Origin: an uncultured Gammaproteobacteria bacterium
Lineage (GTDB): Bacteria > Patescibacteriota > Patescibacteriia > UBA9934
Length of the DNA: 60,915 bases
Direction: 5' to 3'
Assembly: GCA_964401485.1 (NCBI GenBank)
Contig: CAYNYL010000001.1
Coordinates: 2,103-63,017, forward strand
The notes below the pieces were generated by a model that worked only from the letters and a program-made list of their open reading frames with translations, had not been told where the DNA came from and searched no databases. Positions 1,997 through 60,915 of the stretch are shown here, piece by piece. Positions within the stretch are counted from its first letter, which is position 1; each line of letters starts with the position of its first letter. Both the position numbers and the translations under genes were made by a program.

Positions 1997-3058
1997 TTAT
2001 CCTTTTAACTCGTACCATTCTTTGATGACAACTCCAAGAATCATCGTAAGTGGAATCGCAAGGAGAGAACCAATAGCCCCGGCAAATATTGAATGATAGA
2101 GGAGAATCCCGACCTCGAACCCAACCGCGACTGCGATAATCGTAAAGACGGGCGAAATCCCCCCTACCCGCTTAAAGACGTTTGGCGTGATTACGTGATT
2201 TTCAAGTTGTTGAATAATGAAGAATCCGACCGCCGTTGCCCCGGCGAGCGGAAGCGAAACGGTTGATGCAACGAGCGTCGCAACAAGTCCTGCAACATTC
2301 GGTCCAAGAAATGGAATAATCTCGAGAAAACCGCCAATGAGCGCAAGAAGTAGAGCAAACGGGACATCAAGGATCGTAAGAACGATGAAATCAAGCGCGA
2401 AAATGATGATCATGATCAAAATCTGTCCGCGAAGCCAGGCGCTTACCTGTACCTGAACCTTTGGAACAAGCTTGAACAAAAATTGTTTCCATTCGATTGG
2501 GAAGTTGATTGCGTCAATCCCCTTTCGAATCGAAGAGCGTTCAAGAACAAGGTAGAGCGCAAGCACCATGACGATAATAATCGTGAGTGCACCTCCAAAC
2601 GCCGAGCTCACAAGTCCGCCAAGATAGTTCGCTAGATCAAAGATATTCCCGCTTGTCACGCCCTGACTTGAGAGAATCTCGGCGATTTCCGAAATATCCT
2701 CTTTAAAAATAGCCCCTGACGTGACGTTTTCCACGATTGGATACTGCGTAAGAAAGGCGGTAATCGGTCCATTGTACTGATCCGCTAACTCGGTAATTTG
2801 ACGGGCGAGCGACGGAAGAATCAATGCGGATAGAAGAACGAGAAGACCGATGCCCACGAGATAGCTCCCAACTACAGTTAGCGCCATCGGTACGCGAAAT
2901 CGAGCGAAGTACTTTGCCGTCGGCTCAACAAGAGCAGCTAGGATAAGTGAGGCGAAAACAATAATCGCGACGTTCTTTAAGAAATAAAGACTCGCTAAAA
3001 CAACAACGATCCCAAAGATCATGACCAAAGGACTCCCCGTCTTTTCTCGACTTCCCAT
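1997..3058 (-). CDS. AI-2E family (PerM-like) transporter
   Basis: Motifs WLRGQI, EIIPFLGP, IIQQLENHVITPNV, ISPVFTIIA, GSLLAIP. Confidence 0.9.
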   Translation of the reverse strand: MGSREKTGSPLVMIFGIVVVLASLYFLKNVAIIVFASLILAALVEPTAKYFARFRVPMALTVVGSYLVGIGLLVLLSALILPSLARQITELADQYNGPITAFLTQYPIVENVTSGAIFKEDISEIAEILSSQGVTSGNIFDLANYLGGLVSSAFGGALTIIIVMVLALYLVLERSSIRKGIDAINFPIEWKQFLFKLVPKVQVQVSAWLRGQILIMIIIFALDFIVLTILDVPFALLLALIGGFLEIIPFLGPNVAGLVATLVASTVSLPLAGATAVGFFIIQQLENHVITPNVFKRVGGISPVFTIIAVAVGFEVGILLYHSIFAGAIGSLLAIPLTMILGVVIKEWYELKG

Positions 3059-3090
3059 ATGAAACTAGTATAACATAGGGGGCAGAAGCT

Positions 3091-3531
3091 ATGAAAACGC
3101 TTGCGATCAACAAGTACGCAAAATCTGATTACGAGATCCTCTCGCTCCACGAGGGTGGGTTAGCGCTCACTGGCGCCGAAGTTAAATCGGCAAAACTTGG
3201 TCATATCCAGCTTAAAGGAAGCTTTTTGTCGATCGAGGGTGGTCAACTCGTTGTCAAAAACATGTTTATTGCCCGCTACGCGCCGGCTGGCCCCGAAGCT
3301 CCCCACGACGAAACTCGCACCCGAAACGTCCTTGTCCACGCCTCGGAACTTCGCCAATTTATCGGAAAAAAGCAGGCCGAAGGATTGACATTAGTGCCTA
3401 TTCGCGTGTATACTAAACGCAGTTTGGTAAAGCTTGAATTTGCGGTTGCAAAAGGAAAAAAGCAGTACGAAAAGCGCGATACCATCAAAAAACGAGATCT
3501 AGACCGACGACTCCGCCGAGGACTCGATTAG
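3091..3531 (+). CDS. smpB: SsrA-binding protein SmpB
   Basis: INKYAKSDY, GLALTGAEVKSAK, GKKQYEKRDTIKKRD; adjacent to tmRNA. Confidence 0.97.
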   Translation: MKTLAINKYAKSDYEILSLHEGGLALTGAEVKSAKLGHIQLKGSFLSIEGGQLVVKNMFIARYAPAGPEAPHDETRTRNVLVHASELRQFIGKKQAEGLTLVPIRVYTKRSLVKLEFAVAKGKKQYEKRDTIKKRDLDRRLRRGLD

Positions 3532-3567
3532 TCGACGCTCCCCGCTTATCCTTTTAGGAGGCTAGAC

Positions 3568-3948
3568 GGGGCCCGTCGGGATTCGACGGCAAAGGTTCCT
3601 TTCTAAAGATCAGGTCGAAGTCATTCCCTTCGTTAAAAGAATGAACGACATACTTGGAAACGTCAAAACCGCAGGACTTGTTCGAATGAACCTTCCTGCA
3701 TTTGCCCTCGCGTAACTAACGCATCGGCCATCTCCCCACTTCGCTCGTAGGTGGATCAGAGGTGTAATATAACGAGCTTGGGACGATTCGCCGGTTACGA
3801 ATCGTTTAACCTCCATTAACCGAAACGCCTCCGTGCATTTTCGTCATGCATTAAGCCGGAAGCGACCCCCAAAGCATGACTACACCTGTAAACACATCGA
3901 TAGAGAGATATTTGTCACACGGGAGTTCAACTCTCCCCGGGTCCACCA
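3568..3948 (+). ncRNA. ssrA: tmRNA, one-piece; probable tag AGLVRMNLPAFALA* at 3671-3715
   Basis: 5' GGGGCCCGTCGGGATTCGAC; 3' T-arm GGGAGTTCAACTCTCCC and CCACCA; tag frame ending FALA-TAA. The resume codon is inferred. Confidence 0.93.
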
Positions 3949-3968
3949 ATAATTTGTAATAGTTCGCC

Positions 3969-4517
3969 ATGCGCATCCACCGCCACCGTCAACGAAAATC
4001 ACAAATCGTGATTCCGCAGTATAAAGTTAACGATAAAATCCGTTCTGATGAGGTGCGGGTCATTTTTGGGGAAACAAATGACGTAATGACGCGGGAGGCA
4101 GCAATCGCGCTCGCCGAAGAGCATGGACTCGATTTGATCGAGGTTTCGCCAAAGGCAAACCCTCCGGTCTGTAAACTAATGGATTTCGGTTCATTTAAGT
4201 ACCAAAAGGAAAAGGAAGTGAAGAAACAAAAGGCCGCGCAAAAGGAAATTGAAATCAAGGGAATCCGACTTACGGTTCGAATCGGAGAGGGAGACCTCGA
4301 AATCCGACGAAAGCAAGCGCTTAAATTCCTCGAAAAGGGTTCAAAGGTCCGAATTGAGATGATTTTGCGAGGTCGAGAGAAGGCCTACCGAGATCGCGCC
4401 CAAGAAATTATCGATGGATTTATCGCGAGCGTGAAGGAAGTTCGACCTGTAAAAGTTGAATCCCCTCTTAAAAACGTCGGAAATCGTATCCATACGATTA
4501 TTGCAAACGAGGGATAA
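3969..4517 (+). CDS. infC: Translation initiation factor IF-3
   Basis: VNDKIRSDEVRVI, LDLIEVSPKANPPVCKLMDFG, MILRGRE. Confidence 0.97.
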   Translation: MRIHRHRQRKSQIVIPQYKVNDKIRSDEVRVIFGETNDVMTREAAIALAEEHGLDLIEVSPKANPPVCKLMDFGSFKYQKEKEVKKQKAAQKEIEIKGIRLTVRIGEGDLEIRRKQALKFLEKGSKVRIEMILRGREKAYRDRAQEIIDGFIASVKEVRPVKVESPLKNVGNRIHTIIANEG

Positions 4518-58072: not shown

Positions 58073-58115
58073 AGTACGGTTAGTGTACCATCCTTTTCAT
58101 GCTAAAATCCGAGCT

Positions 58116-58376
58116 ATGCGCCTTATCGACAAAAAAGACACCGTCTTCCGGTATCTAAAATCCCTCCCCAAGGGCAAAACCGTGACCTACAAGGAGGTCG
58201 CCCTCGCCTGCGGTCTTTCGAGCCCCCGCCATGTCGGCCATATCCTCCAAATGAACGAAGACCCCGACCTCGTCCCGTGCTACAAAGTCATCCTCTCATC
58301 CGGCCATCTCGCCCGCGGCTACAAATTCGGCGGCCCCGAGGAACAAGCGCGGAGGTTGAGGGAGGATCAAAAATAA
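58116..58376 (+). CDS. MGMT family DNA alkyltransferase (C-terminal domain only)
   Basis: GKTVTYKEVA, PRHVG, VPCYKVI (PCHRV-like), GYKFGG. Confidence 0.88.
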   Translation: MRLIDKKDTVFRYLKSLPKGKTVTYKEVALACGLSSPRHVGHILQMNEDPDLVPCYKVILSSGHLARGYKFGGPEEQARRLREDQK

Positions 58377-58433
58377 AGGTCATAAAAAAGTCATTTTCAG
58401 AACGCGGAATTCGTGCTAAATTCCGAAATGCAT

Positions 58434-58806
58434 TCGAACTTTAACAAGGTCGGCGAAAATGGTCGGGGCCCTTTTAAATTTCACGCTTGGATCAGCCTAG
58501 CTCCAAATCTCCCCCAAGGACGCTTTTAAGAGCTTCCTTGGAGGGGATTTCTTGGAGCAAGTCCCCGAGTATTAATTCATTAGCTCCCCAATACCACTAT
58601 GTCTTATTTTAAGATATACCGGGATCATGCGCTACAATACCGTTGGTCGCTTTACGCGGCAAACAGGGAAATCGTAGCCACAAGCGAAGCATACACTACC
58701 AGGTGGAGTGCTAAGCGATCCGCGGAACGTGTCAAGCAAATCGCATCAAGCGCTTTCATTAGCGAATAGTGCGATTTCACCCTTCGCCGACCTTATTAAA
58801 GCTCGA
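58434..58806. repeat. 24-bp inverted repeats (58434-58457 and 58783-58806) bracketing a hairpin and a YegP-like ORF
   Basis: TCGAACTTTAACAAGGTCGGCGAA versus reverse complement TCGAGCTTTAATAAGGTCGGCGAA: 22/24 identical. Confidence 0.85.
58599..58769 (+). CDS. YegP/DUF1508 family protein, single domain, 56 aa (not in ORF track)
   Basis: MSYFKIYRDHALQYRWSLYAANREIVATSEAYTTRWSAKRSAERVKQIASSAFISE*; matches the F.I..D....YRW.L.A.N.EI.A.SE.Y pattern. Confidence 0.88.
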   Translation: MSYFKIYRDHALQYRWSLYAANREIVATSEAYTTRWSAKRSAERVKQIASSAFISE

Positions 58807-58922
58807 CTACTCGTCCTAAGCAATATAGCCCGTATTTCATGCTACAGATTTAAATGCAAAACTTGCGTACCAATCATCTTAAAGACTAATTCTCTGTTTA
58901 AAATTAAAACGCTACGAAACCA

Positions 58923-59447
58923 CTACTCAACCTTGACGTAGCTTGCACGCAATTTGTTTACCAGCTCCAGCATAGCGGCAAATGACGATTCAGCCTTCGG
59001 CAAAAAAAGTTCACCTCGCGCCTTGGAAAGATGCAAAGTATTTCTAATCCCCTGTAATTCAGCTATTTCCTTAGTTAACTTACTACCTAAGAATTTCTCC
59101 TGTTTTTTAATCATATCCTGTAACCAAATACGCGACTCTTGTTTCTTTTTAGATGACCGATATGCAATTATTAAATCTTGTTTTTGTTTTTTAAACTCGC
59201 TCGGCAAAACTTGAAGGTGCCTATATTGCACATCTTCGTGCACGATGTTTTCTCGTCGTGTTCGGAACAAGAGGAGCGCTTCGATTACGGAGACATTGTA
59301 CAGGATGATCGTTCGAACGGTTTCATCTTTAAATTCATCATCGATGCTTTGTGCTAGCATCCAGAGAAAGCCCGCGAACTTAACCGACTCGATAATATTA
59401 TACCGAAGTGCCTTTGGGGTAATAAACGCAAAGGCGTCTCTTTCCAT
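58923..59447 (-). CDS. Hypothetical protein, possible HEPN-like RNase
   Basis: Helical; SVIEALL early and IRNTLH near the C-terminus; low GC. Confidence 0.55.
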   Translation of the reverse strand: MERDAFAFITPKALRYNIIESVKFAGFLWMLAQSIDDEFKDETVRTIILYNVSVIEALLLFRTRRENIVHEDVQYRHLQVLPSEFKKQKQDLIIAYRSSKKKQESRIWLQDMIKKQEKFLGSKLTKEIAELQGIRNTLHLSKARGELFLPKAESSFAAMLELVNKLRASYVKVE

Positions 59448-59450
59448 AAA

Positions 59451-59645
59451 TTATTTTGATCGACTTGTTTCGATCATCTGTATAAGCTTCGAGAGTGAGG
59501 GCGCACCTTCATTTCGTAACACGGTCGACAATTTAGCATCACCGCGGTAACCCAAATCAATCTTGTACTGTTTTTCAATAGTTTTAACCAACGTGTCACC
59601 ACGCTTCTTTTGAATTCGGCCGTTTTTTGCTCGTGATGCAGGCAT
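59451..59645 (-). CDS. Small basic protein, 64 aa
   Basis: MPASRAKNGRIQKKRGDTLVKTIEKQYKIDLGYRGDAKLSTVL; in operon with the RM genes. Confidence 0.75.
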   Translation of the reverse strand: MPASRAKNGRIQKKRGDTLVKTIEKQYKIDLGYRGDAKLSTVLRNEGAPSLSKLIQMIETSRSK

Positions 59646-59672
59646 ACTTAAAGTGTATATAACGAGAGCAGC

Positions 59673-60593
59673 TTAGTCCAATAATAAATCCACAAACTTC
59701 ACCGCTCGATTCTTTTCCCAATCCATTATCTTCACATAACGACCATTATGTTTGCGGGGGCGCCGACACTTACAACCCTCGCACTCATATTTTTCTATTC
59801 GATCCGGCAGTTCACCGAAAAGCGTTAGTGCACCAGGAATTATTTTACTTTCGTGATGACAGCTCATTGGAATCACGCACCGCACACCATCCATCTGAAA
59901 AATATTCCAACTAATAATCTCAGCGAACTCTTCTCGTACGCCCACTGTTGGCTTTTGATTAAATTTTGCTTCGTAGTAATCAATTAGCGTATAGAGCAAG
60001 TTTTCACGGGCGATGAGTACGTTATCGCCTTGCCATTCATATCCATAACTCGCTTTGTATGCTTCTTTTGCCCACGTCAGCCAGTCTTTTTTATTGTCGC
60101 AGTAACGAGAGACAACTTTGAGTTTACGATCTAAAAAACCAACCCTACTTGGAATACTAATCAGTACACCGTGAGCAGTAGGGTTATAGCGGGTGACTAT
60201 AAAAGGTGCTTCGCCACAGGTAATTTCAAGCTTAAGTTCACGTACGTAGTCCCGCCAGTTATTTTTGTTTGGCTGGTACGGCTCAAGGGCTTTGTTCATT
60301 TGTTCAACAGTCTTGAGTGGAGTGAACACTTCGGCTTTTTCTTTAGTGCGATGACGTTGCTCCTCTAGACTCTTTGCGGCACGGGGTTGAATCAGAAGAC
60401 GGTACTTCCCTGTTACAAGATCTGGCTTGATGTATTTGTCTGGAGCAAATGCTTTTCCGAATTTCTCATAGGAATCAGTTGCCCAGATGATGTTCTTTTT
60501 TGTGGTGCGGTCGACTAGTAAAGTATCAAGTAAGACACCCTGACGGCGGAGGGTGCTTTCTTTAATATCGATATCATACGGAGCCGCCACCAT
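59673..60593 (-). CDS. Restriction-modification accessory subunit (methylase-like, no NPPY motif)
   Basis: LLVDRTTKKNIIWAT, AEVFTP, LEITCGEAPF, YGYEWQGDNVLIAREN, IISWNIFQMDG. Confidence 0.8.
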   Translation of the reverse strand: MVAAPYDIDIKESTLRRQGVLLDTLLVDRTTKKNIIWATDSYEKFGKAFAPDKYIKPDLVTGKYRLLIQPRAAKSLEEQRHRTKEKAEVFTPLKTVEQMNKALEPYQPNKNNWRDYVRELKLEITCGEAPFIVTRYNPTAHGVLISIPSRVGFLDRKLKVVSRYCDNKKDWLTWAKEAYKASYGYEWQGDNVLIARENLLYTLIDYYEAKFNQKPTVGVREEFAEIISWNIFQMDGVRCVIPMSCHHESKIIPGALTLFGELPDRIEKYECEGCKCRRPRKHNGRYVKIMDWEKNRAVKFVDLLLD

Positions 60594-60596
60594 AGC

Positions 60597-60915
60597 TTAA
60601 GACATCGGCTTCACATTCTTTTCGATGAAGTCTATTTCGGCTTTATCGAGCCCGTACTTTTTGTATAGTTGCTTATCAATCTCAGCAACTGACTTGGACC
60701 AATCAATATCTGACTTCTTTGTGAAGTCCTGTAGGGGTACATTTTTCCATGTCCCCTTCGGGTTATCTTGTGTGACTTTTAATGTTCCTAACATAGCTCT
60801 ACAGAACTTCGTTTTGATATATTTGAGACAACTATGGGCTTCACCTTCTGTAGCAAAAGAACCAATCTGCAAAAATGAGTATGTACAACCCGTAAGGGGT
60901 TCTCCCGTAAGGGGT
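60597..60915 (-). CDS. C-terminus of an Eco57I-like (type IIG-related) RM methyltransferase, 5' end outside window
   Basis: LKYIKTKFCRAMLGTLKVTQDNP...VPLQDF...IDKQLYKKYGL..EIDFIE; frame open to the window edge. Confidence 0.85.
   Translation of the reverse strand, partial: PLTGEPLTGCTYSFLQIGSFATEGEAHSCLKYIKTKFCRAMLGTLKVTQDNPKGTWKNVPLQDFTKKSDIDWSKSVAEIDKQLYKKYGLDKAEIDFIEKNVKPMS

Follow-up and report, generated by a model that had tools for sequence, protein, structure and literature searches.

The hok mRNA of plasmid R1 (hok/Sok) and the aapA1-type mRNAs of Helicobacter are transcripts of about 400 nt with a structured leader, a sequestered ribosome-binding region and a long-distance helix that connects their 5' and 3' ends. 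The predicted mRNA of the YegP unit described here shares all of these features. The known mRNAs encode membrane toxins, whereas the YegP unit encodes a soluble domain, and no antisense RNA gene or mok-like frame has been found for it. In silico, removal of an arm leaves the YegP start region shut, which also sets the unit apart from hok, and there is no similarity to hok in sequence or in Rfam. Phage morons resemble the unit in having a promoter-like site of their own, a U-run terminator (present in most copies of the unit), a location at prophage ends or in islands, a composition unlike that of the surroundings and a sporadic distribution. Moreover, YegP-like genes are also found as accessory genes of phages (phrog_1422). 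The terminator of a moron is a local hairpin, whereas the stem of the YegP unit would be made with the 5' end of its own transcript, and its whole mRNA is predicted to be structured. The RNase III stems of rRNA precursors and phage early mRNAs are likewise duplexes of about 25 bp formed by sequences that flank a functional RNA; the helix of the YegP unit differs from them in coinciding with the predicted ends of a primary transcript.

Several studies have dealt with the protein family UPF0339/YegP/DUF1508. DUF1508 has been tied to stress-induced or defence-associated loci, and a Whirly/PC4-like topology that binds single-stranded nucleic acids has been proposed for it (PMC12065111, PMC13373217, 10.1101/2024.11.21.623966). 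Single UPF0339 domains homodimerise, as is known for 6Q2Z (10.1101/2024.11.21.623966). The product of the gene studied here is a clear single-domain member of the family, to which 3BID, 6Q2Z and 2K8E also belong. A structured mRNA or flanking complementarity at yegP is absent from the three sources (PMC12065111, PMC13373217, 10.1101/2024.11.21.623966) and from Rfam. The YegP unit is read below as a long-distance 5'-3' closed mRNA; what is new is that it carries a non-toxin gene, forms a portable cassette and matches no described RNA family.

The YegP unit of the window

The window is the whole stretch of DNA that was analysed, 60,915 nt of contig CAYNYL010000001.1. A first-pass annotation of its sequence had drawn attention to a yegP gene enclosed by inverted repeats and preceded by a leader hairpin. 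The features of this unit are as follows.

58394-58422, plus strand: weak promoter-like site TTTTCA-17-TAAATT, read from the sequence, its position backed by homologues
58434-58457, plus strand: 5' arm of the closing helix (repeat search; covariation in 12 units)
58460-58595, plus strand: leader rod (single-sequence fold; RNAalifold on 3 and 5 sequences; pair counts with controls; covariance model R1)
58597-58617, plus strand: small AU-rich hairpin holding the start codon (fold; RNAalifold helix 6, columns 177-195)
58599-58769, plus strand: single-domain YegP/UPF0339/DUF1508 gene of 56 aa, without a Shine-Dalgarno sequence (Pfam profile, PDB homologues)
58738-58777, plus strand: 3' hairpin across the stop codon (repeat I5; RNAalifold helix 9)
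58783-58806, plus strand: 3' arm of the closing helix (repeat search; covariation in 12 units), without a U-run after the arm in the window copy

The 56-aa ORF matched Pfam DUF1508 (PF07411) with E 4.9e-12 and 46 bits against a cut-off of 22, phrog_1422 with E 8.7e-11, and the solved UPF0339 structures 3BID (E 9e-9), 2K8E (E 7e-7) and 6Q2Z (E 5e-5). Its product is hydrophilic, a conserved soluble UPF0339 domain. A protein word search with the 56-aa protein gave no matches. The codon differences between two closely related units from metagenome contigs (L024 and L029) comprised 7 synonymous and 2 non-synonymous ones; the YegP protein is under purifying selection in the close relatives, and the ORF is therefore in use.

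The inverted repeat at 58434-58457 and 58783-58806 is 24 nt long and matches at 22 of 24 positions (92% complementary), with the arms 325 nt apart. It encloses the 56-aa YegP gene and the long leader hairpin in a unit of 373 bp. With up to three mismatches allowed, the arm sequence has only these two sites in the window, where shuffles lead to an expectation of 0, and the same two sites only in the whole genome of 1.09 Mb in 38 contigs. The 24-bp repeats of the first-pass annotation are thus real, and no further copy of them exists in the 1.09 Mb. Its other readings of the unit's borders also held: the 3' arm begins 13 nt after the stop codon, that is with the 14th nucleotide; both outer repeat ends are TCGA, a palindrome; and the flanks of the unit (...gaaatgcat and ctactcgtc...) have no sequence in common, so that a target duplication is absent. 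Both mismatches of the window helix are A.C on the plus strand and, as had been pointed out, G.U on the minus strand.

The 391-nt stretch that was folded has a minimum free energy (MFE) of -147.9 kcal/mol (z = -8.9 versus shuffles), and about 70% of the nucleotides of the unit are paired in the predicted fold. The arms of the leader hairpin (58505-58527 and 58528-58550) are present. The long internal hairpin marked earlier at 58500-58558 was recovered; moreover, it caps a longer rod, which measures about 136 nt and extends from about 58460 to 58595. In the window, the lowest helix of this rod pairs with a C-rich stretch immediately 5' of the AUG.

The closing helix and the leader in twelve units

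Eleven homologous units were found in other Patescibacteria genomes and metagenome contigs, which makes 12 with the window. Four of them are close relatives, from genome G014 (L008), a Candidatus Uhrbacteria MAG (L009, G124) and the metagenome contigs L024 and L029; to obtain them, relatives were searched at the DNA level, species genomes were scanned with a protein pattern and metagenomes with a leader pattern. The other seven are more diverged (G009, G109, G750, G717, G753, G873 and G844) and came from Pfam DUF1508 searches. The 12 units are not all independent, L024 and L029 being close relatives of each other. Unit length ranges from 358 to 418 nt. The leader DNA pattern gave 11 matches in metagenomes, of which 3 are real (one duplicating L009) and the rest are chance; its only match on a viral contig (L015) was rejected as a chance match in AT-rich coding DNA. 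The leader covariance model R1 recognises the close relatives only: it has matches in 3 genomes among the 162 of the order, and the roughly 390 other genomes sampled from the class gave none. Pfam DUF1508 was found in 6 of the 162 genomes of the order and in 14 of 401 in the phylum sample. One sequence of this set, CAZYCR010000001.1 (L010/L008), belongs to a genome of about 0.7 Mb deposited as 'uncultured Gammaproteobacteria bacterium'. It is placed in the family of the window organism, and the deposited label therefore looks wrong.

Complementary flanks are not a general property of yegP homologues in the CPR. They occur at the 11 further units, but the closing helix is absent from nine other Patescibacteria DUF1508 genes (eight at phylum level, L064 and L066-L072, and L044), which makes it a feature of one clade. 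In eight viral DUF1508 homologues, which come from GC-rich phages, both the leader and the closing helix are missing.

A helix of 22-28 bp is present in 12 of 12 units, with a 5' site that begins 143-194 nt before the ATG and a 3' site that begins 7-17 nt after the stop codon. For the 12 units an ungapped alignment of the arms, anchored at the helix's inner end, gives 25 pairs and 300 cells. Standard pairs made up 94% of the 300 cells, a percentage inflated by the choice of arms in the relatives as the best complementary pair, aligned on the helix; changes on both sides were found in 24 of the 25 pairs. None of 500 shuffles reached any of the five measures, and when the partner was slid by 1-3 columns the paired percentage was 35-49%. 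The helix keeps a fixed position, its per-locus z-scores range from 5 to 11 in 11 of 12 units, and it is part of the unconstrained MFE fold in all 12. The shuffles, the slid controls, the fixed position, the per-locus z-scores and the presence in unconstrained folds argue against an artefact.

The positions of the helix that are not Watson-Crick pairs are, on the coding strand, G.U in 37 cases versus A.C in 7 (binomial p = 5e-6). In 11 of 12 units the plus strand has the lower MFE, with a difference of 13-44 kcal/mol from the minus strand; the window is the exception, with -154.3 kcal/mol on the minus strand versus -147.9 kcal/mol on the plus strand. A G.U bias together with a better fold of the coding strand is expected of a plus-strand RNA and not of transposon ends or recombination sites. 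Comparison of the 12 units, which come from different genera, shows that the helix and the rod are maintained by compensatory change, and the strand bias indicates an RNA of the coding strand. The repeats most likely correspond to the strands of one conserved RNA helix by which the 5' and 3' ends of the mRNA are joined.

RNAalifold on the five close units gave a structure of 132 pairs, 41 of them with compensatory change and with 91% of cells paired; slid pairing reached 33-44%, and 0 of 500 shuffles matched the observed values. Covariation is concentrated in the closing helix (14 of 25 pairs), the apical rod (9 of 28) and the stop-codon hairpin, helix 9 (compensatory change in 10 of 19 pairs). 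The start-codon hairpin has one covarying pair, which is U-A in two sequences and C-G in three. Inner helix 2 is broken in the window copy. The apical hairpin of the rod (58500-58558) covaries, and the basal part is invariant in sequence: GGCCCTTTTRAATTTCACGCT / CCCRAGTATTAATTC. In the close relatives these two leader blocks are almost unchanged next to proteins that are just 51-66% identical, the nearly invariant basal rod corresponding to 58466-58488 and 58563-58584 of the window. The base of the rod is thus more conserved than the coding sequence. Invariance of this kind carries no information on pairing and hints at a sequence-specific role; it points to a ligand that is specific for the sequence, either a protein or the ribosome, and not to helix stability alone.

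Applied to the window, the R1 model scored 128.7 bits on the plus strand versus 33.2 bits on the minus strand. In Rfam 15 no family matched. The only hit was FinP on the minus strand (20 bits versus a gathering score of 45, E 0.68), and it was rejected as chance. A coding leader peptide, suggested by a conserved GPFxFHA frame, was also rejected; the ends of the frame differ between units and the region covaries as RNA.

The promoter proposed in the first-pass annotation, TTTTCA-17-TAAATT, is present and its position is supported by homologues, but it is weak, with 8 of 12 consensus positions, and falls under the threshold of the consensus scanner. Its -10 box is separated from the 5' arm by 11 nt (10 nt in the register of the 25-bp helix). 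Among the 12 units, 11 have a -10-like hexamer that ends 3-10 nt before the helix, as in L009 and L024 (TTGTCC-17-TACAAT) and in L045 (TTGACT-17-TAAAAT); in six of these, L045 being one, the site agrees with the consensus at 9 or more of 12 positions. At the other end, a run of at least three U ends or follows the 3' arm in 8 of 12 units, as in L045 (...GGGAGTTTTTTATTT). A U-run is absent after the 3' arm of the window copy, where the sequence is CTACTCGTCC and the terminator scanner finds none. With -10-like boxes, U-runs and the borders of homology all at the helix, the helix seems to coincide with the ends of a primary, autonomous transcript; we infer the transcript start and 3' end at the helix borders from motifs only. 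In most copies the helix is shaped as an intrinsic terminator whose 5' strand would be the start of its own RNA, and an intrinsic terminator hairpin with a 325-nt loop is unusual.

Compared with its relatives, the window copy has retained the clamp, the rod and the ORF, and lacks the U-run and inner helix 2, without a bias toward the coding strand. It is atypical in several respects at once: A.C mismatches on the plus strand, a slightly better fold of the minus strand, no U-run, a weak promoter and a broken helix 2.

The start regions of the 12 units are of two kinds. In the subfamily of the window no Shine-Dalgarno sequence is found, and the sequence before the AUG is rich in C and U; this holds for five units (window 58580-58601, L008 2205-2221, L009 2487-2503, L024 1152-1168 and L029 1782-1798). 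Among the seven units that are more distant, strong GGAGG sites prevail. In L045, L061, L062, L063 and L065 the Shine-Dalgarno sequence pairs with a CUCC-type stretch located 3-10 nt after the 5' arm. An equivalent start-region helix exists in the window subfamily, but its AUG-side strand is C-rich, so that the window has a C-rich strand paired with a G-rich one. When the 3' or the 5' arm was removed in silico, positions -14 to +4 had essentially the same predicted unpaired probability as before in each of the 12 units. A role of the clamp as a translational switch is not apparent from these predictions, and the start region would be ruled by the basal helix of the leader itself.

Genomic setting of the units

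The G+C content of the window drops from about 58% to about 42% at about position 58380, where an AT-rich island of about 7.3 kb begins that runs past the end of the window. The YegP unit occupies the left edge of this island, directly after a co-oriented 97-aa MGMT-like gene of the core genome. The features of the site are as follows.

58083-58376, plus strand: 97-aa protein consisting of an MGMT DNA-binding domain alone, with PCYKV in place of the canonical active-site motif PCHRV
58380-60915 and on to about G000:C1:67800 (L014 480-7800): AT-rich island, about 42% versus about 58% G+C in the flanks
58923-59447, minus strand: 174-aa ORF without a family match, convergent with yegP, ending 117 nt from the 3' arm
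59673-60593, minus strand: type II methyltransferase of the island
L007 (G001:C54) 2316-4145, minus strand: OLD/AriA/GajA-like ATPase of 609 aa in a genome of the same genus, following the orthologous MGMT-like gene, with no YegP unit or restriction-modification island

Two further proteins are encoded on the minus strand of the island: a type IIG restriction-methylase of 1287 aa, in which ResIII helicase and T5orf172 domains are combined, and the candidate defence protein PDC-S02, of 325 aa, whose domain is NucS/PD-(D/E)XK-like. Two ORFs of the island, of 174 aa and 64 aa, are without assignment. No terminator-like site was found between the 174-aa ORF and the 3' arm, and read-through of the restriction operon would yield RNA antisense to the YegP unit. 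The 97-aa MGMT-like protein is possibly alkyltransferase-like or else a minimal Ogt.

In the genome of the same genus (G001), homology of 84% is lost at about position 58367 and a different defence gene lies beyond. With an OLD/AriA-like ATPase at this site in G001, the site is a variable defence hotspot whose cargo is exchanged. The comparison revealed a variable site, but not a precise empty site of the 373-bp unit. Genes of the defence type adjoin other units as well. The window unit stands beside a type IIG restriction-modification system and PDC-S02, and the neighbours of other units include a NucC-like nuclease, PDC-M04A/DUF3800, a type II restriction endonuclease with a C5 methylase, and N4/N6 methylases. 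Other units lie at prophage ends, next to a large terminase with a large serine recombinase, an IrrE-like peptidase with a serine recombinase, or a ParB-methylase with a small terminase. The large serine recombinases (Resolvase, Recombinase and Zn-ribbon domains) beside related YegP units are located at L075 6637-7914 and L079 4862-6229; in view of a terminase large subunit near one of the two, those units are assigned to prophage ends. Sequence homology between units sets in at one border and ends at the other, with L024 and L029 being 52% identical upstream and 84-95% identical inside. These alignments show that the unit travels as a module, with a sporadic distribution among the genomes compared.

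Interpretation of the unit

On balance, we hold it to be reasonably probable that the 373-bp unit is an autonomous, moron-like YegP cassette with clamped mRNA ends at the edge of a horizontally acquired restriction/defence island. Transcription would start a few nucleotides before the 5' arm and stop at or just past the 3' arm, and the two arms would pair as an RNA helix of 24 bp and so hold the two mRNA ends in a clamp. Between the arms would lie the rod leader of about 136 nt, the start-codon hairpin, the hairpins of the coding region and the stop-codon hairpin. The clamp would shield both RNA ends from end-dependent nucleases. In most relatives, where it ends in a U-run, it would double as a long-range intrinsic terminator that insulates the cassette, and the base of the rod would hold translation initiation down. 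The role of the clamp is probably stability and insulation and, in most relatives, also termination.

The main rival to the clamp reading takes the duplex of 22-28 bp, which is perfect or nearly so, as a substrate of RNase III, with the YegP mRNA being cut from read-through transcripts, or its decay or activation being regulated in this way. The tightly kept helix length of about two helical turns in 12 of 12 units is in line with it, as is the full-length RNase III encoded by the genome (227 bits versus a cut-off of 166), and longer or antisense transcripts are plausible for a window copy that lacks a U-run, directly follows a co-oriented gene and faces a convergent operon. However, the -10-like boxes in 11 of 12 units and the U-runs in 8 of 12 at the helix borders suggest primary transcript ends and not an internal processing site. 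We regard RNase III cleavage as unlikely to be the main explanation, and it is compatible with the clamp and may coexist with it. The first-pass annotation had pointed to hok, in which case the 5'-3' helix would keep the mRNA inert until slow trimming of the 3' end frees the 5' end and leads to refolding and translation, possibly with an antisense RNA involved. Its structural part stood: the 5' end folds back on the 3' end and closes the transcript, and the leader is structured as in hok. In addition, the ribosome-binding region pairs with a sequence 3-10 nt after the 5' arm. The regulatory part of the annotation did not stand, since the product is a soluble UPF0339 domain and not a small hydrophobic toxin, no promoter-like site of the Sok type was found on the minus strand of the unit, no overlapping mok-like frame is conserved between units, Rfam gives no hok/Sok match, and removal of the arms leaves the thermodynamically predicted accessibility of the ribosome-binding site as it was in 12 of 12 units. 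A hok-like mechanism is thus very improbable. The helix joining the ends also led us to consider circularisation of the RNA; ligation is unlikely, the genome being without RtcB.

Two further proposals of the same annotation concerned the DNA itself and the opposite strand. In formal terms the arms, with palindromic TCGA ends and 325 bp between them, are inverted repeats; the unit moves as a module, with breaks of homology at its borders, and large serine recombinases adjoin the related units L075 and L079. MITE-like terminal inverted repeats come to mind, as do, beyond the annotation, the recombination sites of an invertible segment. We give this reading hardly any probability: the unit is a single copy in its genome without a target duplication, no recombinase is adjacent in the neighbourhood of the window, and those near the relatives are of the phage-integrase type at prophage ends. 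The arms change in a compensatory manner, and in relatives the repeats are imperfect with a strand bias (G.U 37 versus A.C 7) that fits RNA and not recombinase sites in duplex DNA. The other proposal, an antisense RNA that folds as a mirror image, for instance through read-through of the convergent restriction operon, draws on the window copy, in which the mismatches are G.U on the minus strand, the minus strand folds better by 6 kcal/mol and the convergent operon ends 117 nt away with no terminator-like site between. In the family, the plus strand folds better by 13-44 kcal/mol in 11 of 12 units and the G.U pairs fall on the coding strand at 37:7; even in the window the leader model prefers the plus strand (128.7 versus 33.2 bits). 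A conserved minus-strand structure is accordingly the least probable of the explanations considered.

Beyond the cassette with clamped ends, it is conceivable, though doubtful, that the folded RNA is itself functional and that the transcript and the DUF1508 dimer form an RNA-protein module of mobile and defence islands in Patescibacteria. In one version the mRNA would be a sensor that stays closed until RNase or helicase activity induced by a phage opens it. In the other, YegP would be bound to the sequence-invariant internal loop of its own leader as an RNP. The window subfamily, which has kept all helices without a Shine-Dalgarno sequence, would fit a role of the RNA beyond simple translation.

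If the clamped cassette is correct, it would extend a short list, made up mainly of type I toxin mRNAs, by a 5'-3' closed mRNA backed by covariation, and the addition would be a non-toxin case from Patescibacteria, whose RNA biology is almost unexplored. It would also offer a compact natural module of about 375 nt for the effects of end-clamping on mRNA stability, termination and translation. Overall, it would provide a handle on YegP/DUF1508, a widespread family linked to stress and defence and without a known function, whose expression here seems to be tightly packaged.
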